Virus record (IMG/VR): IMGVR_UViG_3300037200_000146
Location: 1 to 44,305 of that record
Origin: a virus
DNA length: 44,305 bases
Reading direction: 5' to 3' (one strand)
How positions within the stretch are numbered: position 1 is the first letter of the stretch; each line of letters opens with the position of its first letter. This document shows, piece by piece, positions 6,830-25,336 of this stretch. Below the pieces are notes generated by a model. That model saw only the letters and a list, made by a program, of their open reading frames with translations, did no database searches and had not been told where the DNA came from. A program made the translations under genes and the position numbers.

Positions 6830-7023
6830 TAAATTAATCCTTTCTCTTTTAGAACCGCTTTTATTTGAAACCTAATTTGATGCCATTTGTTTATGTCCAA
6901 TGTTTTATGGAGCCATAATAAATAATCTGGATCATATTCCACGATGTCCTTTAGTTTCTTTCCCTTATAGGCACCAAAATCTAATTCCTCATTCATCGCT
7001 TTATAAACATAAGGCTCAACCAT
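6829..7023 (-). CDS. DUF3820-like small protein (FGKYKGK...DPDYLLWL motif)
   Basis: Contains DFGAYKGKKLKDIVEYDPDYLLWL. Confidence 0.5.
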   Translation of the reverse strand: MVEPYVYKAMNEELDFGAYKGKKLKDIVEYDPDYLLWLHKTLDINKWHQIRFQIKAVLKEKGLI

Positions 7024-7981
7024 GAGGCGGAGTTGTTTTCCTATTTTTCAACATGTAAGAACAAAAAGAATCGACTTTATCGATGGGTAAATCGTGAAGG
7101 GAATCGATGCTTAAATATTGTTTAATGCTTGCGTGGATATCATTTTTATTCCAGTTGGCCTCGTTGGCCGTTCCATAAATCTTTTGAAGCTGTTTGTAAT
7201 CAAGCCTTTTCTTTTCCTCTAAGGGCTCAAGGAAATCATTAATGGGAGGTGGTTCATTGGGGGGTGGTTCATTGGAGGGTGGAGGGTCTAAGGAAGTGGT
7301 AGTGGGGTATGTGACGGAAGTCGAGACTGAAGATATCTCCGTTTGCGGGGATGTAGGCGAAGCTGAAGGAGGTATTAGGTTTTTTTTTGGATCTTCCTCT
7401 GGAGGAGGGGTGACGTCTTTTACATCTGGCATTTCTTCTTTAACATATAGACCGCTTAAATGTTGTGGAAAGGCTTTACGAAGGGCAAGGGCTTCGGCGA
7501 CCTTTGCTAACATGAGGGCTGGTTTCTCATGCCACATTTTTGTAAGTTCGCCTGTTTGTTTTCGTAGAGCGTATTCATTGAAATGAGCTACGGCCCAGAG
7601 AGGCTCTTTAAAATCCGAACGAAGAATGCCAACTTTAGCGGCTTCAGGCGTGGCATCTCCTTTCCAAAAATCAGACCATTTACCATCCATTCCGCACCAA
7701 AGAGGGCCGAGTTGTCCTGCATATTTTCCGCTGCGTTCTGCAACAAGCCGCTGGCCATCGATTGATATTTGAGGGGTCATTTTTGCAACTTTTTGTTTTA
7801 ATTCTGGATCATAATCCCAGCGTTTTATGCAATAGATTTGACGAAGGAAGGGATCAAGCCCGGTTACTTCGCAAATGTGGAGGAATAACTTTAATTCATC
7901 GTCCGTGGCACCCTTGGCAATTTGGCGCTTGATCAAAGATATTTGTTCAAGTGGCAGGCCTGATTTGGCTATTTCATTCAT
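7016..7981 (-). CDS. recT: RecT/Bet-family single-strand annealing recombinase with a Pro-rich C-terminal tail
   Basis: Contains DDELKLFLHICEVTGLDPFLRQIY, ISIDGQRLVAERSG and KPALMLAKVAEALALRKAFP. Confidence 0.85.
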   Translation of the reverse strand: MNEIAKSGLPLEQISLIKRQIAKGATDDELKLFLHICEVTGLDPFLRQIYCIKRWDYDPELKQKVAKMTPQISIDGQRLVAERSGKYAGQLGPLWCGMDGKWSDFWKGDATPEAAKVGILRSDFKEPLWAVAHFNEYALRKQTGELTKMWHEKPALMLAKVAEALALRKAFPQHLSGLYVKEEMPDVKDVTPPPEEDPKKNLIPPSASPTSPQTEISSVSTSVTYPTTTSLDPPPSNEPPPNEPPPINDFLEPLEEKKRLDYKQLQKIYGTANEANWNKNDIHASIKQYLSIDSLHDLPIDKVDSFCSYMLKNRKTTPPHG

Positions 7982-12667: not shown

Positions 12668-12850
12668 TTGCTAGAAAAGCTTGGGTTATCGTTTACAGCC
12701 ATTTTTAACAGTGCAAGAACCACGGTCGATGGTGGATGGAGAATAACCTTTGATCTCTCAAACACCGATTCAGACAAAATTTCCGAAATCGCTGCCCTTC
12801 AACATCAACTTTTACAAATAGCTATTATCCCAATTGGTGATTCTGAGTGA
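12668..12850 (+). CDS. Hypothetical protein
   Basis: TTG start after a strong SD. The stop overlaps the methyltransferase GTG start. Confidence 0.45.
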   Translation: MLEKLGLSFTAIFNSARTTVDGGWRITFDLSNTDSDKISEIAALQHQLLQIAIIPIGDSE

Positions 12851-14337
12851 TTCATCACGGCTGTTGTCTTGATATTCTAAAAACCCTCCAAGAAAATTCA
12901 GTCGATTCTGTAATTACAGACCCGCCTTATGGCCTAAGCTTTATGGGGAAGAAATGGGATTATGACGTTCCTTCAATCGATATTTGGCGAGAGGCTCTTA
13001 GGGTTCTTAAGCCTGGTGGGCATCTACTTAGCTTTGGTGGGACTAGGACGTATCATCGGATGGCTGTGGCTGTCGAAGACGCGGGATTCGAAATAAGAGA
13101 TCAAATTCAATGGCTGTATGGTTCGGGTTTTCCTAAATCGCATAATCTCAAAGATGAGTGGCAAGGATGGGGATCGGCTTTAAAGCCAGCGAATGAGCCT
13201 ATATGTCTCGCGCGAAAGCCTTTATCTGAAAAGACCTTGGCTTTGAATGTGCAGAGATGGGGGACGGGGGGATTGAACATTGATGCGAGTAGAGTTGAGG
13301 CTGCTGACCAAGCCACTTTAGACGCCGCAGTGAAGCGAATGGCCGGCAACGAAGTGACTGGGTGGGTGACGTCTGGTTCTAAATCGGTACAACCAAAGTC
13401 GGCCCAAGGCCGCTTCCCCGCTAATCTAATCCTAGATGAGCAGACATCTCTTATGCTCGATGAGCAGAGCGGTCAGTCTCGCGGAGACTCGCGATTAAAG
13501 AAAATTCATGTAGGGGCGGCGGGGAACGGAAATACTCATGGTCATATGTCCCCAGCGCAAAATGGTAGCCCCTGCTACTCCGATTCAGGCGGCGCAAGCA
13601 GGTTTTTTCTACGCGTAAAATATGATAATGCTGAATTATGTGGAAACGAGAATATAAAGGCCGCCGTTATGTCTGTTGGAAGGAAAACGGTAAACAGAAA
13701 AGACAACTTGAACATCGATGGGTCTATGCGCAAGCCAATGGACCAATTCCAGATGGGCACCATATCCATCACAGAGATGGGAACTCACTCAATAATGAGC
13801 TTTCCAATCTTGAATGCCTCCACAAAGATATTCACTGGGACTTGCACAATCGAGACCGCGAGGACCATAGAAAAATCTTTGGTAGAGAATGTCGAAGGTG
13901 TCAGCGTTGTCAGCGATACAGAAGTCTTGCTTCATTTACCAAACGAAAAGCAGGAACGTATCACGGGTATTGTAAACCTTGCGTTAGAGAGTATCTCAGT
14001 GAGTGGCGAGATAAAAACCGTGAACATTGGAACTCATATCACCGAGAGTACCGGAGCAAGTAGATTCCTATATTGTGCGAAGGCCAGTAAATCAGAACGC
14101 AATGGCTCAACGCATCCAACCATGAAACCCATAAAGCTCATGACCTATCTTTGCCGCCTTATCACCCCGCCTAAAGGAATTATTTTGGACCCATTTATGG
14201 GAAGCGGTTCCACAGGAGTTGCGGCTAAGAACCTAGGCTTTGAATTCATCGGCATTGAGCGTGAAGCTGAATATGTAGAAATCGCTAAGCGTAGAATCAT
14301 GAAAATAACACAAGATTACAGCGAAAGACTGTTATGA
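12847..14337 (+). CDS. Beta-class DNA methyltransferase (N6-adenine likely) interrupted by a 154-codon in-frame insertion
   Basis: Motif IV is SVITDPPYG. Also present are HPTMKPIKLMTYL and motif I ILDPFMGSGSTGVAA near the C-terminus. GASRF occurs twice (13591.. and 14053..), flanking non-methyltransferase-like sequence. Confidence 0.85.
   Translation: MIHHGCCLDILKTLQENSVDSVITDPPYGLSFMGKKWDYDVPSIDIWREALRVLKPGGHLLSFGGTRTYHRMAVAVEDAGFEIRDQIQWLYGSGFPKSHNLKDEWQGWGSALKPANEPICLARKPLSEKTLALNVQRWGTGGLNIDASRVEAADQATLDAAVKRMAGNEVTGWVTSGSKSVQPKSAQGRFPANLILDEQTSLMLDEQSGQSRGDSRLKKIHVGAAGNGNTHGHMSPAQNGSPCYSDSGGASRFFLRVKYDNAELCGNENIKAAVMSVGRKTVNRKDNLNIDGSMRKPMDQFQMGTISITEMGTHSIMSFPILNASTKIFTGTCTIETARTIEKSLVENVEGVSVVSDTEVLLHLPNEKQERITGIVNLALESISVSGEIKTVNIGTHITESTGASRFLYCAKASKSERNGSTHPTMKPIKLMTYLCRLITPPKGIILDPFMGSGSTGVAAKNLGFEFIGIEREAEYVEIAKRRIMKITQDYSERLL
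13606..14067 (+). mobile_element. 462-nt insertion in the methyltransferase carrying an out-of-frame HNH gene (boundaries approximate)
   Basis: The GASRF duplication is offset by exactly 462 nt. The copies differ only synonymously (ggc gca agc agg ttt versus gga gca agt aga ttc). Confidence 0.6.
13638..14063 (+). CDS. HNH homing endonuclease overprinted on the methyltransferase ORF in a different frame
   Basis: EHRWVYAQANGPIPDGHHIHHRDGNSLNNELSNLECLHKDIHWDLH is an HNH_3 pattern, followed by a CRRCQRC...CKPC Cys cluster. (13638-12847) mod 3 = 2. Confidence 0.8.
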   Translation: MWKREYKGRRYVCWKENGKQKRQLEHRWVYAQANGPIPDGHHIHHRDGNSLNNELSNLECLHKDIHWDLHNRDREDHRKIFGRECRRCQRCQRYRSLASFTKRKAGTYHGYCKPCVREYLSEWRDKNREHWNSYHREYRSK

Positions 14338-17187: not shown

Positions 17188-19365
17188 GTGGGCAAAAAAG
17201 TTACAAAGAAGAGCGCTATTAAAAATGTTTCACGTGGAACAAAAAAGGTCGAGAACGCAAGCGCAAATGAATTCATAGGGTTCGGTCAGCCTCCATTTGG
17301 AGGCTTAGCTGGCATTCCAGGCGGCCAAACATTTCAACCCGTTGAAGACACCACAACAATGTTTACCAATCTTCGTTGGTATCTCATATCAAACTTTAGA
17401 CAAGTCCTCTCTCAAGGTTATGTGGAGCTAGGACTAATACAAACCATTGTGAACGTTCCTATTGATGATGGATTGCGGGGCGGAGTTTTGCTTAAATCCA
17501 GACAATTAGATGAAAGCCAAATCAGGGAACTCCAAATATCACTCGACCGTGACGACGATATCAATACATGCGGATGGGCAGCAAAGTGGAATAGATTATA
17601 CGGTGGTGCTGGAATTCTTATACTCACAGATGATCAAGACCCCGAAGAACCATTCGACATCTCAAAAATCACGAAAGATACGGACTTAGAGTTTCGCGCT
17701 GTAGATATGTGGGAGCTGTTCTGGGATAAACAGAACACCGAAGGATATGACCCGCAAATCCAAGCGCAAGATTTTGAGTTCTACAGCTATTACTCCGAAA
17801 ATATTCATAAATCGCGAGTCATGCGTCTTAAGTCCATTCAGGCTCCAAGCTTTATTCGTCCACGCTTAAGGGGTTGGGGAGTTTCGGTTGTTGAGGCGCT
17901 AGTTCGCTCCATCAATCAATACCTAAAAGCAACAGACCTTGGCTTTGAAGTGCTCGATGAATTTAAGATCGATTACTATAAGCTAAAAAACCTAGCCAGT
18001 TCTCTTCTCTCCCCTAATGGTTTCGAGAAAACAGCTAGACGAATTCAGAATATGAATCTGCAAAAGAACTATAACCATGCCGTTGTAATGGATACCGAGG
18101 ATGATTTCATCCAAAAGCAGTTGTCCTTTGCGGGCTTGGCTGAGGCAATGGACGGTATTCGTATGCAGGTCGCGGCCGACATGAGGATGCCCATAACAAA
18201 GCTCTTCGGGACTTCGGTTAGCAAGGGATTCGCAACAGATCAAAACGACATGGAAAACTACAATTCCATGGTCGAATCTGAGGTAAGAAACAAACTCAAA
18301 TACGACATTCTTCGAATATGCGAAATTAAATGCCAAAAACTATTTGGATTTATCCCAGATGACATGGAGCTTGAATTCAAACCGCTTCGTGAGCTTAGTG
18401 CCATTGACCAAGAAACGGTTCGCACGCAGAAATTCACAAGACTTCAAGCTGCGGCCGATACGGGCCGTATTTCACTTCAAGAATATAGGGATGCAGCTAA
18501 CAAGGGTAATCTCTTTGATATTCAACTCGATACCACAGAAGACGGTATCGACATTGGTGACAACGAAGAAACTGAAGTCGCAGGCGAGGAAGAATCGCGT
18601 GATCCCGAAAAGGATTTAGACGTCGAAGATCCGGGCGCTAATCGAGAAGACACGAGAAAAGTTCGAGCCGATATCAATGTAGAGCCCACTGCGCCAGGCG
18701 CAAAGAAAATGAATTTTAAAAATGAAAAGAAGTTTGAGGAATCGAAACATCCTAGAGCCGATGATGGAAAATTTGGAAAAGGTGGCAGCTCTACTACATC
18801 AAAAAAATCCATTAAGCGGGACTCATTAGTTCCGCAAGGAGAGGTTGGGACTCTTTTAAGAGAACATAAGGAAGATTTCGAAAAACTAGGTAAAGCCGAG
18901 CCTGAATTGAAAACGGCGATTTATGAGTGGAGTCGTGCAGGTTATCAATATGCACGCGCTCTTCAACAAGGAAAAAAATTAAAAGGAGAAGAAAAGGAAA
19001 TTGGTGAAAGTGTATTAAATGGAATGCACGCCAATTTCGATAAGCTTCCCATTTATGAGGGCCCGTTAACAAGAGATCTTCAATTCGATGATTGGGATCA
19101 GGCGTTGAATGTTTTTAAACCAGGAAACACTTTTGAGACAGATGCATATAGTTCCTTTACGGCTAAAGAGGGGTATAGCAATAGGAAATGTCGATTAATT
19201 ATAGAGAAAAATACTAAGGGCAGAGCTGTTTGGGGCCTATCTCAAGCTAAGGATGAGGCAGAAGTTATTGTACCCAAAGGGCAAAAATATGTTATTGACA
19301 AGGTGCGTCAAAACGACGATGGTCCTCCTTACGTATTGGTGTATTTAAAAGAGGTGAATGAATGA
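17188..19365 (+). CDS. Portal protein (DUF1073-like) fused to a C-terminal ADP-ribosyltransferase-like domain
   Basis: 725 aa, directly after terL. An acidic linker is followed by the R-S-E pattern LTRDL, AYSSFT and DEAEVIVPKG. Confidence 0.7.
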   Translation: MGKKVTKKSAIKNVSRGTKKVENASANEFIGFGQPPFGGLAGIPGGQTFQPVEDTTTMFTNLRWYLISNFRQVLSQGYVELGLIQTIVNVPIDDGLRGGVLLKSRQLDESQIRELQISLDRDDDINTCGWAAKWNRLYGGAGILILTDDQDPEEPFDISKITKDTDLEFRAVDMWELFWDKQNTEGYDPQIQAQDFEFYSYYSENIHKSRVMRLKSIQAPSFIRPRLRGWGVSVVEALVRSINQYLKATDLGFEVLDEFKIDYYKLKNLASSLLSPNGFEKTARRIQNMNLQKNYNHAVVMDTEDDFIQKQLSFAGLAEAMDGIRMQVAADMRMPITKLFGTSVSKGFATDQNDMENYNSMVESEVRNKLKYDILRICEIKCQKLFGFIPDDMELEFKPLRELSAIDQETVRTQKFTRLQAAADTGRISLQEYRDAANKGNLFDIQLDTTEDGIDIGDNEETEVAGEEESRDPEKDLDVEDPGANREDTRKVRADINVEPTAPGAKKMNFKNEKKFEESKHPRADDGKFGKGGSSTTSKKSIKRDSLVPQGEVGTLLREHKEDFEKLGKAEPELKTAIYEWSRAGYQYARALQQGKKLKGEEKEIGESVLNGMHANFDKLPIYEGPLTRDLQFDDWDQALNVFKPGNTFETDAYSSFTAKEGYSNRKCRLIIEKNTKGRAVWGLSQAKDEAEVIVPKGQKYVIDKVRQNDDGPPYVLVYLKEVNE

Positions 19366-19625
19366 AAATCAACGATGTTATTAATCAAGCGCTCAACTCT
19401 CCTTTAGAAGACCGAAAAGAAGATTCCACTCAAATTACTCGAAATGATCTTGAAAAGTTCGTTAACGAATATGGATTAATACCGAACAATCCAGAACTGC
19501 TCCAAAAAGCCATTAATGGCTATGATCTTTTAAATGTGAAACCAAAAGAAAAGAACACTTGGATCATAAACATGTATAGAAAGCTTGGCGGGGGAAGCGA
19601 ATTTAAAAAGGGGAAAAAGGAATGA
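19362..19625 (+). CDS. Hypothetical protein
   Basis: 87-aa ORF, coupled to the portal stop. Confidence 0.5.
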   Translation: MKINDVINQALNSPLEDRKEDSTQITRNDLEKFVNEYGLIPNNPELLQKAINGYDLLNVKPKEKNTWIINMYRKLGGGSEFKKGKKE

Positions 19626-19780
19626 GAAAAGGACCATTGAAGGGGAGAAGTCTTAATTCAAAAAAAGACAAAAACGGTAATCGCGGTTGGGAAGAGGTCA
19701 AATCTAAAAAGGATCGCGTAAAGGCAAAAAAAGAAAAGAACAAAATTTATAAAGCTTCAAGATTCGGGGGGATCAAATGA
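19622..19780 (+). CDS. Hypothetical 52-aa highly basic protein (below the ORF-track cutoff)
   Basis: Reads MRKGPLKGRSLNSKKDKNGNRGWEEVKSKKDRVKAKKEKNKIYKASRFGGIK, with ATGA overlaps at both ends. Confidence 0.4.
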   Translation: MRKGPLKGRSLNSKKDKNGNRGWEEVKSKKDRVKAKKEKNKIYKASRFGGIK

Positions 19781-20229
19781 ACGACATGGGGAATTGGATG
19801 CCGGGGATGACGCTTGAGATGGTTGAAAAGGCTACAATTCAAGCCGCTTTTCATTTCTATAGAGGAAATAAAACACAGACATCAATTGCTCTTGGATGTT
19901 CCGTTAGAACTCTAGATACAAAATTGGAGAAGTATGAAGCCGACCGAGAACTTGCAAGAATCCGATATGAACAAGAAAAACGAGAACGAGCAAGTATGCT
20001 CGAACGAATGCGTGGAATCCACCCCACAGAAGCCGTTGAATCGTCGAGGTCAAGCCTTTACCATGCCGATTCCGGGGTTCACCTGGAATCCCCTACTTTC
20101 ACTGGAAAGGAACCGGCCGTGCCCGTGCCTGAGCGGCCGCAAGTTCAAGAGATGTTGTCTAATGAAGCTTCCACGGGCAGTCCCGGAAAAGGAAGCAGCA
20201 AGATTCCGCGCGCTAATAAGAATGGGTAA
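19777..20229 (+). CDS. Fis-type HTH (HTH_8-like) DNA-binding protein
   Basis: LEMVEKATIQAAFHFYRGNKTQTSIALGCSVRTLDTKLEKYE matches the Fis/NtrC C-terminal HTH pattern. The C-terminal half is low-complexity. Confidence 0.6.
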   Translation: MNDMGNWMPGMTLEMVEKATIQAAFHFYRGNKTQTSIALGCSVRTLDTKLEKYEADRELARIRYEQEKRERASMLERMRGIHPTEAVESSRSSLYHADSGVHLESPTFTGKEPAVPVPERPQVQEMLSNEASTGSPGKGSSKIPRANKNG

Positions 20230-20332
20230 GGTTGTTTTCAACACGTTGGAGAACGATTCTGTTTTAAAGGAATTAGGATATGAATTACCAAAGCCTAAAG
20301 AATCCAATGAAAAACTCCCAGACCCTAGTTGA
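19934..20332 (+). CDS. SEC-C motif protein (start uncertain; ATG 20063 is plausible), overlapping the HTH gene in another frame
   Basis: RNRPCPCLSGRKFKRCC is a SEC-C metal-binding motif. Confidence 0.5.
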   Translation: MKPTENLQESDMNKKNENEQVCSNECVESTPQKPLNRRGQAFTMPIPGFTWNPLLSLERNRPCPCLSGRKFKRCCLMKLPRAVPEKEAARFRALIRMGKVVFNTLENDSVLKELGYELPKPKESNEKLPDPS

Positions 20333-22259
20333 ACTCCCATCGATAAAAGAAACGACGGAGGATTATGAAGCGCTCGAAAGCTACATCAAAAAGATCTTCA
20401 AGAAAGAAATCTATATCCCCCTTATTAGTGAATTTGGTGGAAATAGTAGGGTCATTAAGAACTCGGCAGAAACCTTATTATCTGCAATACAAAGTGGGAG
20501 AATACAGTTTTATCGTGGCGTGTTCTCAGGCGAGTTCAACTCGGAAATCTCAAAAGAGTTAAAAAAGCTTGGCGCTACATGGGATAGGTCTAAAAAGGCA
20601 TGGAAGCTACCATCGGCTGATTTACCGCTTGATGTTCGCATGGCCATCTCAGCCTCAGCCTCCCAGTTTCAGAGAAAGCTTGAAAAAATAGATAGAATTT
20701 TGGCGGCCATAAGCCCGGAAGAGTTAGCCGGATCAATGCAAATGACCAGGTTCTTTGATTCAGCTTTATGGAAGGTTGAAAAGTCCTTAAAAAAATCCAT
20801 GAAGAATCTTGTTGTTCAACCTGAGCTAACAAAGGAACAAAGACAACGTATCGCTGATGAATGGCAAAACAACATGAAGCTTTGGATTCATGATTTCACC
20901 GAAAAAGAAATAAAAGAACTTCGAGGTAAGATCCAAAAGACCATATTCGCCGGCAATCGATACGAATCAGCCATTAAGACAATTCAAAAATCCTATCAAG
21001 TTTCAGCCAATAAAGCCAAGTTCTTAGCCAGACAAGAAACGATGCTTTTGATGACTAAGTTCAAGGAAACAAGATACCAAGATGCAGGCGTTAACGAATA
21101 CAAATGGCGCTGTGTAAAAGGAACCCCGCTTCATCCAGTTCGTCCCATGCACAAGGCGCTTAATGACAGGTCCGAGAAGGGTGAGATATTTCGATTCGAT
21201 CAACCTCCCGTTGATGATCCAAAAGGCGGAAGACATAACCCCTCACAAAATTATAATTGCTTACCTGGCAACACAGTCGTGAGTTTCGACCAACCTGTAT
21301 TGAAGATATTTAAACGTAGATACACGGGAAAAACGGCCATACTTGTCACGGACGACAATGTGGTCATTGAGACGACAGGAAATCATCCTATATTGACGAA
21401 CTCCGGCTGGCGTCCCGCCAATGAGGTCAATCTCGGTGATTATCTTTTCAAGCGCGTAGGGGAAAGCATCGATATCAAAAAGATGAATGGCCAATATGTG
21501 GAAGCCGGCATTGAGGATATATTTAGTGCGCTTTCTATTTGTTCTCCAATAATGGTTGACAGACTTTCCAGTTCTGATTTCCACGGCGATGTCATTGAAG
21601 ACAAGCAAGTCGACATTATAAGTCCCAATCGCGAATTGATTCTTAACGGGATAACCGAGCTTTATGAAATGTTCGAAGAATTCCTTTTCAAGGGGACCTT
21701 CTCTTCTCGAACAAGATTTAGCTCTTTTGATAAGACTACTACGACGTGGGGGCTTGCCTCTGACAGCTTCATTGGCTTTTTTAACGAGCTTACGCTTTTC
21801 CTTCAAAGACATTCTCCCGAATCTAAGTGTATTAGCCTCCGAGCCAGATCTCTTCTTGATCCCACAAAGCTTAAGCCATCTGGAAATAGTACTCCGTTTA
21901 ACTCTATATTTTTTAGCGACGGCAAGTTCACTCATCCCAAACTTGTAATCCTTAATAGCGTGATGATTAATGGGTGTTGTATTCCAGGAAACGAATCTAC
22001 CGACTCTTTCGATAGAGACTCCCCTTTCTCTAAGGCGCTCGCTGAGCAAGTCGGGATTGACTTTAAGTCTGCGTCCGATTTCAGCAATAGTGCGCTTGGA
22101 GCCTCGATAAAGCCTCTCCGCATCATCGATAAGAGTTTCAGGGATTTTAGCGGTCACGTTTACAACCTCCAAACTGGTATGAATTGGTATTATGCTAATA
22201 GCCTAGTAATGGCAAATTGTCGCTGCACGGCCGTTCCTGTTGTGCGATTCAAAAAGTAA
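20280..22259 (+). CDS. MuF / SPP1 gp7-like minor head morphogenesis protein, intein-containing
   Basis: YKWRCVKGTPLHPVRPMHKALN..., then GGRHNPSQNYN|intein|CRCTAVPV. The NCRC ending typical of the family is restored only after excision. Confidence 0.75.
   Translation: MNYQSLKNPMKNSQTLVELPSIKETTEDYEALESYIKKIFKKEIYIPLISEFGGNSRVIKNSAETLLSAIQSGRIQFYRGVFSGEFNSEISKELKKLGATWDRSKKAWKLPSADLPLDVRMAISASASQFQRKLEKIDRILAAISPEELAGSMQMTRFFDSALWKVEKSLKKSMKNLVVQPELTKEQRQRIADEWQNNMKLWIHDFTEKEIKELRGKIQKTIFAGNRYESAIKTIQKSYQVSANKAKFLARQETMLLMTKFKETRYQDAGVNEYKWRCVKGTPLHPVRPMHKALNDRSEKGEIFRFDQPPVDDPKGGRHNPSQNYNCLPGNTVVSFDQPVLKIFKRRYTGKTAILVTDDNVVIETTGNHPILTNSGWRPANEVNLGDYLFKRVGESIDIKKMNGQYVEAGIEDIFSALSICSPIMVDRLSSSDFHGDVIEDKQVDIISPNRELILNGITELYEMFEEFLFKGTFSSRTRFSSFDKTTTTWGLASDSFIGFFNELTLFLQRHSPESKCISLRARSLLDPTKLKPSGNSTPFNSIFFSDGKFTHPKLVILNSVMINGCCIPGNESTDSFDRDSPFSKALAEQVGIDFKSASDFSNSALGASIKPLRIIDKSFRDFSGHVYNLQTGMNWYYANSLVMANCRCTAVPVVRFKK
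21258..22217 (+). mobile_element. Intein (320 codons) with no recognisable sense-strand endonuclease domain
   Basis: N-terminal region CLPGNTVVSF...TTGNHPILTNSGW. C-terminal region GHVYNLQTGMNWYYANSLVMAN|C, with Ala in the penultimate position. Confidence 0.7.
21261..22172 (-). CDS. Antisense ORF nested in the intein: HTH + PD-(D/E)XK (Vsr/DUF559-like) putative homing endonuclease
   Basis: 303 aa. HTH-like segments are KRTIAEIGRRLKV and MSELAVAKKYRVKRSTISRWLK. The nuclease core is LEKEFFEHFIKLGYPVKNQFAIGTYNVDLLVFNDIAVEIRTGK...KYILNAGFHILAIH. Confidence 0.6.
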   Translation of the reverse strand: MEVVNVTAKIPETLIDDAERLYRGSKRTIAEIGRRLKVNPDLLSERLRERGVSIERVGRFVSWNTTPINHHAIKDYKFGMSELAVAKKYRVKRSTISRWLKLCGIKKRSGSEANTLRFGRMSLKEKRKLVKKANEAVRGKPPRRSSLIKRAKSCSRREGPLEKEFFEHFIKLGYPVKNQFAIGTYNVDLLVFNDIAVEIRTGKSVNHYWRTNRKRTKYILNAGFHILAIHLFDIDAFPYALEKIITEIDLIGGTPAGVRQYRMISCRLNDHIVVRDKYGRFSRVSTFKYLQYRLVETHDCVAR

Positions 22260-24280: not shown

Positions 24281-25336
24281 ATGAGAAAGCAACCCGTAAT
24301 TACAAACTCTAAGGGCGCACCAATCGTCCTTAACGAAAGAGAAGCCCATGTGGCTAACTATTGGGAACGTCATATCAAGAACTCTCTTGGATATGAAGTT
24401 GCCATCACAACCCTGACCCAAATCGTTAAGAAAGTCTCTGAGCAAAAGCTCTACCAAATTGCTCCGGCCGACTATCTTCCGATTCGTGTTGGTGAAGGAA
24501 CCTGGAGTTCTAACCTGACCACGTTCCGTAGCTATGACATCGCTGACGAATTCGAAAGCGGTATCATCAACTCAGGCGATTCGAACACGCGTCTTAGCGT
24601 GGGTGATGCCGGTGTTGATGCTCTGAACATCAAGGTCAACAACTGGGCTAAAAACTGCGGTTGGTCGATCTTTGCTCTGGAGCAAGCTGCTAAATCAGGA
24701 AACTGGGATCTTGTTTCGGCTAAAGAAAAAACCCGTAAACGTAACTGGGATCTCGGGATTCAGCGTGTGGCATTCCTCGGCGCTCGTGGTCAAAACGCAT
24801 CAAACGGTTCTTGCCTTGGTCTCTTAAACCAAGCTGGAATCACTTTCGATACCACTTTGATCACCGCTCCGTTGTCAGGCCTTGCTCCTACAAACCTTTC
24901 GACCTTCCAACAACTAGCGATTCAGCGCTATCGGGCTAACTGTAGCTATACGTCTTTCCCGACCCACTTTATCGTTCCGGAATCGGATTATAACGGCATG
25001 GCAGCGCAAGCTTCGGCTACCTTCCCGATGAAATCGATTTTGGAACTTTTGGAAGAAGGTTTCCAAATCATCACCAGGAACAAGAACTTTAAAATCTTGC
25101 CCCTTGTGTATGCTCAAGCTGCAAATGCAGGTGGATCGCTGCCCTCACAAGCTGCGACCCAAATGTATGCGTTCTTGAACTATGATGAAGAATCGCTTCG
25201 CATGGATATTCCCTTGGATTACACGAATACCCTCGCGAACAGCTTGGATAACTTTATGTTCCAAAACGCTGGCTATGGCCAATTCACCGGCGTCTTGGCA
25301 TATCGTCCGGCTGAGCTCTATTACGCTGGATTCTAA
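24281..25336 (+). CDS. Major capsid protein (DUF2184-like)
   Basis: 351 aa. Contains QKLYQIAPADYLPIRVGEGTWSSNLTTFRSYD. It follows the scaffold and decoration genes. Confidence 0.75.
   Translation: MRKQPVITNSKGAPIVLNEREAHVANYWERHIKNSLGYEVAITTLTQIVKKVSEQKLYQIAPADYLPIRVGEGTWSSNLTTFRSYDIADEFESGIINSGDSNTRLSVGDAGVDALNIKVNNWAKNCGWSIFALEQAAKSGNWDLVSAKEKTRKRNWDLGIQRVAFLGARGQNASNGSCLGLLNQAGITFDTTLITAPLSGLAPTNLSTFQQLAIQRYRANCSYTSFPTHFIVPESDYNGMAAQASATFPMKSILELLEEGFQIITRNKNFKILPLVYAQAANAGGSLPSQAATQMYAFLNYDEESLRMDIPLDYTNTLANSLDNFMFQNAGYGQFTGVLAYRPAELYYAGF

Follow-up and report, generated by a model that had tools for sequence, protein, structure and literature searches.

A phage portal protein with a C-terminal ADP-ribosyltransferase domain and a conserved motif at the cargo junction

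Phage-encoded ADP-ribosyltransferases (ARTs) can occur as fusions to portal proteins (Iyer et al., 2022; PMC9503650), and comparative genomics has also reported portal fusions with PBECR, 2H, InPase and NUDIX domains (PMC5512222, PMC9503650). In the MuF (SPP1 gp7-like) toxins, of which the EFV toxin of an Enterococcus faecalis V583 prophage is an ART example (Jamet et al., 2017; PMC5576092), the C-terminal effectors, ARTs among them, vary on a conserved minor head protein that serves as their anchor, and DNA-coupled delivery has been hypothesised for them; T4 Alt, in turn, is a head-stored ART with the Arg-Ser-Glu (R-S-E) signature that acts on host proteins immediately after injection (PMC5512222). 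Here we analysed the IMG/VR virus record IMGVR_UViG_3300037200_000146 over 44,305 nt (hereafter, the window), which contains a gene whose product is a portal protein ending in an ART domain. Portal-fused ARTs are already known as a class, and this ART-portal adds a member to it. A first-pass annotation, made from the sequence without database searches, had read the gene product as a portal-like body followed by a charged linker and a C3/VIP2-type R-S-E ART; we confirm that observation, which is supported by profile matches, the predicted fold, conservation and recurrence in relatives.

The N-terminal part of the protein is a portal by every comparison made. Pfam places Phage_portal_3 (PF06381) at residues 78–417 (E 4.6e-57; 193.8 bits against a cut-off of 33.8) and PHROG 146, "portal protein", spans residues 70–502 (E 3.2e-75), in agreement with the body that had been proposed from the sequence. 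The solved portals matched are those of Pam3 (8hds, E 2.4e-17) and, also, gp19 of Pa193 and E217, and the portal of the Bdellovibrio phage phi1422 is 51% identical over residues 20–448 and lacks the extension. The profile, the similarity to solved portals and the position of the gene place the protein in the Phage_portal_3/TIGR01555 (HI1409) family and show it to be a bona fide portal of a phi1422/E217-like tailed phage, which by homology would form a dodecameric ring at one vertex of the capsid. A protein of identical sequence in a public collection (P0003) heads a four-member cluster and has precomputed matches to both PF06381 and PF03496.

The C-terminal domain matches ADPrib_exo_Tox (PF03496) at residues 645–710 with 31.6 bits, above the gathering cut-off of 23.4 (E 1.3e-07), and with 33.1 bits when the C-terminal fragment is scored on its own. 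The three parts of the R-S-E signature that the first-pass annotation had picked out are present in the right order, with R629 followed by S656-F657-T658 and E690-A-E692 (Table 1). To the domain from the window, the type 1 domains of a 15-sequence alignment (12 sequences, nine of them portal-borne and three free) are 38–66% identical, and the three type 2 domains 17–21%. Only seven columns are invariant across both subtypes, and these include R629, S656, E690 and E692.

An AlphaFold2 model built on the alignment of 15 homologs, which replaced a poor single-sequence run with a predicted local distance difference test score (pLDDT) of 54, reached a mean pLDDT of 92.0 and a predicted template modelling score of 0.86, and comprises three helices at the N-terminus and then a core of seven strands. 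Its folded domain coincides with the span 18841–19365 (residues 552–725) to which the ART had previously been assigned. R629 lies on the first core strand (E76-82) and S656 on the third (E106-109), and E692 opens the fifth (E143-146). ARTs usually have the Arg on strand 1, the S-T-S on strand 2 and the ExE before strand 5, and the placement in the model is consistent with this layout if short extra strands are allowed for. Comparison of the model with the PDB using Foldseek gave 118 matches at E ≤ 0.001, and all 50 of the matches listed are R-S-E ARTs (probability 1.00, template modelling (TM) score about 0.6–0.73), including Tre1, XopAI, Vis, a Listeria ART toxin, ExoS/ExoT, C3, Certhrax, HopU1 and SpvB; E was about 1e-10 for Tre1, XopAI, Vis, C3 and ExoS. 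The matches in BFVD were phage ARTs, including "RNA polymerase ADP-ribosylase" models of the Alt type and MuF or portal fusions, and viral entries of UniProt that are annotated as portals contain the same ART fold. The ART fold predicted from the sequence is thus borne out by the profile score, the confident model and the fold matches, and the ordered, conserved R, S-x-T and ExE place the domain in the R-S-E family. Because profile, predicted fold and conserved catalytic residues agree, the portal-fused part is a complete R-S-E mono-ADP-ribosyltransferase domain, with its Arg, Ser-x-Thr and Glu-x-Glu intact, and probably an active enzyme. The presence of ExE rather than QxE in this clade points to arginine as the acceptor.

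This ART subfamily is rare. An exhaustive search of 1.84 billion representative proteins with the ART profile retrieved 1202 relatives at E ≤ 0.001, 11 of them at E ≤ 1e-30, and no match at 1e-3 came from a tblastn comparison of the ART region with 50,697 cultured-phage records. Word-indexed searches with the domain or its alignment found two or three proteins only and missed the portal fusions, a yield that reflects the tool and not rarity. The close relatives sit on head proteins, as combinations of Phage_portal_3 with ART, of PF04860 with MuF and ART (with or without a Zeta toxin), of ART with InPase and of MuF with ART.

The locus resembles each of the closest described systems in some respects and differs from it in others. 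It shares with the polyvalent and head-fused effectors of Iyer et al. the N-terminal portal anchor, the C-terminal Alt/VIP2-like R-S-E ART and the terminase-portal-MuF block; packaging and injection were predicted for those effectors, as they are here, and the InPase, NUDIX, PBECR and Zeta cargos of the relatives match their catalogue. Like those head-anchored effectors, the protein is an anchor-effector fusion encoded in the head module, and the effector varies among similar anchors. With the MuF toxins it shares a conserved head anchor with variable C-terminal effectors, but the anchor is the portal, with 12 copies per virion, instead of MuF, with one or two copies in SPP1; moreover, the MuF protein of this phage lacks an effector, and we saw neither a clear immunity gene nor a hint that the phage is temperate. 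The Pbunavirus portal gp19 (PB1, E217, Pa193) belongs to the same Pfam family and is likewise built of a body, a long linker and a C-terminal enzyme, although the cargo is a pyrophosphatase and the bodies share only distant similarity (phmmer E 3e-4 to 2e-3). In the Pseudomonas phage PB1, gp18 (L131, 1112–3418), annotated as "minor head protein", has PF06381 at residues 115–463 and InPase at residues 639–757 (E 2.2e-43); this InPase region corresponds to the part of E217 and Pa193 gp19 that has no density in cryo-electron microscopy. T4 Alt, which is specific for arginine, is loaded into the head by means of a capsid-targeting sequence and is trimmed by the prohead protease. It shares the R-S-E ART with the protein described here, and T4-type "RNA polymerase ADP-ribosylase" models are among the fold matches, but Alt is a separate protein, whereas this ART is a covalent part of the portal for which no processing is known. 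Finally, the best solved match is Tre1, a type VI secretion system (T6SS) effector of Serratia proteamaculans (6DRE/6DRH; sequence E 0.056, fold E 1.6e-10, TM 0.71), whose R, S-T-S and E-A-E align residue for residue with those of the portal ART; the two are only 18% identical, and Tre1 is delivered by the T6SS and paired with an immunity protein of the ADP-ribosylhydrolase type, of which no counterpart was found among the open reading frames (ORFs) scanned in the window.

A search with the whole protein gave 1770 relatives, and the comparisons that follow use the 120 best of them. These are 474–1041 residues long and their portal bodies are mostly 60–75% identical. C-terminal cargo of at least six kinds was found in 19 of the 120. 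Twelve carry an ART, nine of type 1 and three of type 2, and the latter are more canonical, with a PF03496 match at E 8.7e-19 in P0031. The other cargos comprise one GNAT acetyltransferase, one domain with a HEIGH zincin-like motif, ParB-type domains (a weak ParB_N match under the Pfam cut-off in P0099, and a region that is ParB-like by eye in P0056) and several without a recognisable domain. Clustering by portal body showed that the nearest neighbor is cargo-less for 15 of the 19 cargo-bearing portals, and the three portals nearest to the one in the window (75% identity) all lack cargo. Since cargo-bearing portals are scattered among cargo-less ones, the cargo acts like a mobile cassette, subject to gain, loss or exchange, and the comparison shows an interchangeable set of domains on this portal family. 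In a distant phage, the gene of a free-standing homolog of the ART (P0001) is flanked directly by a Mu-type portal gene and the MuF gene. In another relative (L008) the portal, of 974 residues, has two cargo domains plus an ART, and a gene for 78 residues between portal and MuF (6859–7095) matches Acb2_Tad1_hairpin, of a sponge family directed against Thoeris and the cyclic oligonucleotide-based antiphage signaling system (CBASS); this suggests that genes for counter-defence have a hotspot between portal and MuF.

The linker between body and ART consists of two halves of opposite character. The acidic stretch that the first-pass annotation had noted is indeed found at residues 449–483; counted over residues 449–484 (36 residues, one Ala beyond the stretch), there are 16 Asp or Glu and two Lys or Arg. 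The second half (residues 484–551) contains no Pfam domain, and a count over residues 485–575, which reaches into the ART, gave 22 basic and 17 acidic residues. Both this half and a conserved junction motif (Table 1) had been overlooked. The motif, followed by a run of glycines, stands just before the cargo in all 19 cargo-bearing portals and is found in none of the 101 cargo-less ones. It is also present near the N-terminus of the free-standing ART P0001, and giant polyvalent proteins are punctuated by it: in P0144, a protein of 7334 residues that contains an ART and was retrieved by the profile search, there are 15 copies, one ahead of each module.

The motif extends well beyond this portal family. 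At least 119 IMG/VR stretches (L012–L130) match a degenerate DNA pattern for KHPRxxDGKFG, when well under a handful would be expected by chance according to our own rough estimate. A domain scan of 71 non-redundant motif-bearing ORFs identified 28 portals, two S78 prohead proteases and one DUF2213 protein; the motif-bearing portals span four Pfam families (Phage_portal_3, Phage_portal_2, Portal_Mu and Phage_portal), and the domains attached to motif ORFs include ARTs, topoisomerase IB, Zeta toxin, PBECR1, InPase, NUDIX, LPD1/LPD3 and rubrerythrin-like domains. In 32 small motif proteins the motif lies mostly 13–44 residues from the N-terminus, in a few up to about 100, and many of the small genes begin only a few bases away from where a portal-sized ORF ends. 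Several of these small proteins open with an odd histidine repeat of the type M-x-K-H-I-H-I-H. A tblastn search of cultured phages with a 26-residue motif peptide gave one weak match, to a portal of the HI1409 family, and is too insensitive for this purpose; reading of the PB1 sequence revealed no HPR motif. We considered whether the Pfam family DUF5661 is the junction motif, and rejected this, as the two are not equal. No description of the motif was found in the literature, either by its spellings or in the paper on polyvalent proteins, which is not proof of novelty. We tentatively suggest, at somewhat less than even odds, that the motif is a hitherto undescribed "cargo tag" used generally by tailed phages, serving as a processing site, as a signal for loading into the capsid, or as both. 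If this were true, searching for the motif would offer a way to catalogue the proteins that are loaded into phage heads and injected, and could help to test how these are released.

We consider it reasonably likely, by analogy with other head-packaged ARTs (PMC9503650, PMC5512222, PMC5576092), that the portal ART is a cargo that is packaged in the head, cleaved from its linker and injected, and that it ADP-ribosylates arginines of host proteins at the start of infection. In gp19 of E217 and Pa193 the barrel at the C-terminus points into the head and no density is seen for residues 529–765 (PMC10329688, PMC11456595), and the ART would therefore be expected to hang inside the capsid; these structures agree with the head-internal position at the portal that the first-pass annotation had imagined for it. 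With portal C-termini facing the interior, up to twelve copies per virion would lie at the inner mouth of the DNA channel. Delivery would require cleavage of the linker, because a tether of about 100 residues cannot span a contractile tail, and the junction motif is the best candidate for the site, or for the signal, of a cut within this flexible region. Once freed, the ART would exit together with the DNA during infection, in the manner of T4 Alt, and would then consume NAD+ in the cytoplasm of the host to mono-ADP-ribosylate arginines of one or more host proteins, such that the cell may be redirected or disarmed at the earliest stage of infection. The scattered and swappable nature of the cargo suggests a role in an arms race, that is, in host takeover or counter-defence. 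Linker cleavage, injection and a host-modifying or anti-defence role are what we infer.

Several points weigh against this proposal. To reach the host, a folded domain tethered to the portal would first have to be cut free, and the sole candidate for a head protease or scaffold in the window is the DUF2213 protein. A pure targeting role of the junction motif would be redundant in the fused state. The canonical S-T-S is present as the variant S-F-T, and the closeness of R, S and E to the NAD pocket is judged from the placement of secondary structure in the model.

The alternative that fares best, although we rate it as rather unlikely, is that the ART acts only late in the producing cell, or stays tethered in the capsid, the fusion being a means of co-expression or sequestration without delivery. 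ModA and ModB of T4 are phage ARTs that are not packaged, and would be precedents for it. The lack of a demonstrated cleavage site or protease speaks for it too, as would a linker that appears far too short to pass a myophage tail while attached, and ARTs that counter defences aimed at the packaging apparatus have been considered (Iyer et al., 2022; PMC9503650). Nevertheless, the same type of ART exists on its own in P0001, with the motif at its N-terminus and the gene set between those for portal and MuF, and the topoisomerase IB, Zeta toxin, PBECR RNase and NUDIX domains found on portals, proteases and scaffolds fit loading into the capsid better than late action in the cytoplasm; Alt and the MuF fusions provide precedents for such loading.

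The gene that follows the fusion bears on a second alternative. Ordinary portals of the family end in a module of about 70 residues with the pattern FDxASYxADGG...WxFxVWxYKKxGGKF, and in seven relatives with an ART-terminated portal this module is a separate ORF for 87–133 residues located directly after the portal and mostly overlapping its stop codon. The 87-residue ORF of the window retains only the ends of the pattern, INxAxxxPL at the N-terminus and WIINMYRKLGGG at the C-terminus. It ranks first among all ORFs of the window in a search with a hidden Markov model of the module, with an E value of 1 that is not significant, and for this reason its equivalence to the module rests on its position and on the relatives. 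A search of PDB sequences with the C-terminal module retrieved nothing meaningful. Among the ORFs directly behind type 1 ART genes (19362–19625 in the window; L001, 10820–11125; L002, 5374–6498; L003, L004 and L006–L009), eight of nine share the N-terminal sequence M-x-L-x-x-[IV]-N-x-A-[FL]-D-x-P-L, and the INxAFDxPL peptide is kept even where the rest of the ORF is unrelated; L001 and L002 are the unrelated contexts. We rejected the possibility that the peptide is ordinary portal sequence, as it occurs in no portal and in none of the 268 proteins compared. It may regulate or plug the enzyme, or be an immunity peptide or a cassette boundary. Both the strict association of the junction motif with cargo and the split-off C-terminal module of the portal look new, and we found no description of either in the literature.

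In this alternative, the protein would be a polymorphic toxin of the MuF kind, with particles that kill or inhibit competing bacteria and with the overlapping small ORF as the immunity protein. The polymorphic C-terminal domains on a conserved anchor fit this, the closest match among solved structures is Tre1, a toxin used between bacteria, and eight of the nine type 1 ART genes, whether fused or standalone, precede an ORF of the INxAFDxPL type, mostly coupled or overlapping and even in unrelated contexts. We nonetheless find this explanation improbable. In seven relatives the rest of the downstream ORF is the C-terminal module of the portal, which is no known immunity fold, and we detected no ADP-ribosylhydrolase, macro domain, integrase, repressor or lysogeny module among the window ORFs scanned, an absence of evidence that is not proof. 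MuF toxins are essentially confined to temperate phages (PMC5576092), whereas no association with a temperate phage was seen here: the relatives are free contigs of about 44–45 kb, and phi1422, the nearest relative in culture, came from sewage as a free phage.

Still less probable, in our opinion, is a degenerate and catalytically dead ART fold that is retained as a structural part of the portal crown or for the assembly of the head. The change of S-T-S to S-F-T would fit such decay, but R, S and ExE are invariant among type 1 domains that are only 38–66% identical, and also across type 2, at 17–21%, and the closest portals are entirely without the domain, which is consequently not needed for assembly. 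Lastly, an assembly or frame artefact joining separate portal and ART genes might be suspected from the distant phage L001, where the homologous ART has a gene of its own downstream of the portal. Such an artefact is so improbable that we reject it, because the frame is continuous in the window, the identical P0003 heads a cluster of its own and the same in-frame layout, with linkers of varied lengths, is shared by no fewer than 11 other independent portals, which come from different samples.

The window has the look of a complete phage genome of about 44 kb, in which the fusion gene is part of a block in the order TerL (the large terminase, with an intein), portal-ART, 87-residue ORF, HTH_8, MuF (with an intein), DUF2213, major capsid, sheath (DUF3383/E217 gp31-like) and further tail genes (Table 1). 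The order TerL-portal-(small ORF)-HTH_8-MuF matches that of phi1422, the nearest cultured phage, and of metagenomic relatives, and an HTH_8 neighbor occupies the same position in L003, L004, L007, L010 and phi1422; phi1422 also shares the order onwards to the major capsid gene. At the place of the terminase, the relatives have Terminase_6N/6C proteins of 432–463 residues without an intein, or of 640 residues with a weak Intein_splicing match, and their MuF proteins have 321–341 residues. The first-pass annotation had stated that the ART is on the portal and that the MuF homolog lacks one, and this holds: Pfam finds Phage_Mu_F and an intein, and no ART match, in the MuF of this phage. PHROG 595, which combines MuF and ART, matches both this MuF and the ART region. 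The DUF2213 protein, encoded between MuF and the capsid gene, is similar to gp24 of Pa193.

Table 1. Features of the portal-ART gene and of neighboring genes in the window.
Feature	Residues	Coordinates	Strand	Basis or detail
Portal-ART fusion gene, GTG start, stop included	725 aa	17188..19365	+	Single uninterrupted ORF
Portal body, Phage_portal_3/TIGR01555 type	1-448	17188..18531	+	Pfam, PHROG, relatives
Acidic linker, TTEDGIDIGDNEETEVAGEEESRDPEKDLDVEDPG	449-483	18532..18636	+	Direct reading
Second linker half, basic, Lys/Gly/Ser-rich	484-551	18637..18840	+	Direct reading
Junction motif, FEESKHPRADDGKFGKGG, consensus [FW][DE]ExKHPRxxDGKFG	516-533	18733..18786	+	Portal comparison
ART domain, R-S-E clade	552-725	18841..19362 (19365 with stop)	+	Profile and model
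Catalytic-motif Arg in YEGPLTRDL, core strand 1	R629	19072..19074	+	Invariant; aligns with Tre1 Arg
S-x-T variant of S-T-S, in AYSSFTAKE	S656-F657-T658	19153..19161	+	S656 invariant; aligns with Tre1 S-T-S
ExE of the ADP-ribosylating turn-turn (ARTT) loop/strand 5, in KDEAEVIVPKG	E690-A-E692	19255..19263	+	Both Glu invariant; aligns with Tre1 EAE
Small ORF, overlaps portal stop (ATGA)	87 aa	19362..19625	+	Positional equivalent of split-off portal C-terminal module
Large terminase with LAGLIDADG intein, immediately upstream of portal	834 aa	14662..17166	+	LAGLIDADG_3 and Hom_end, aa 269-342
HTH_8 (Fis-type) small protein, between portal and MuF		19777..20229	+	Pfam E 6.7e-07
MuF homolog with intein		20280..22259	+	Phage_Mu_F aa 214-327; Intein_splicing/PT-HINT aa 337-402
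Major_capside		24281..25336		Domain match

Other observations concern the surroundings of the block. Within the MuF intein there is an antisense ORF for 303 residues (21261–22172, minus strand), whose last few codons overlap the N-extein and whose product has matches to HTH_23 and, weakly, to an MTES_1575-like restriction endonuclease; the sense frame of MuF stays open for more than 900 nt across it, as a filler rich in Ser, Phe and Leu. Homologs at about 30% identity, with E down to 6e-29, were found in 94 cultured-phage records, and in the listed records that were checked the corresponding DNA carries no annotation other than "head protein" or "hypothetical protein". In Aaphi23, a homologous frame of 338 residues lies antisense to the 800-residue head protein ORF42. 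The ORF looks like a conserved, unannotated nuclease of the homing type on the opposite strand of the intein, for which we found no description in the literature. The window also includes what is ordinary phage content, namely an N6/N4 DNA methylase of 496 residues just upstream of the packaging genes (12847–14337, plus strand) and, on the early arm of opposite strand, a RecT recombinase and an HNH endonuclease (listed at 7016–7981, minus strand).

Proteins injected with phage DNA act before phage gene expression, which makes them prime candidates for host takeover and for the defeat of host immunity; to our knowledge, few have been characterised beyond T4 Alt, the Dar proteins of P1 and the virion RNA polymerase (vRNAP) of N4. 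A portal that would present twelve copies of an ART offers a clean and genetically tractable case, in which the ART should be dispensable for assembly because the closest portals exist without the domain. The junction motif that is linked to the cargo would likewise give a handle on the release of cargo and on the finding of packaged effectors in metagenomes.

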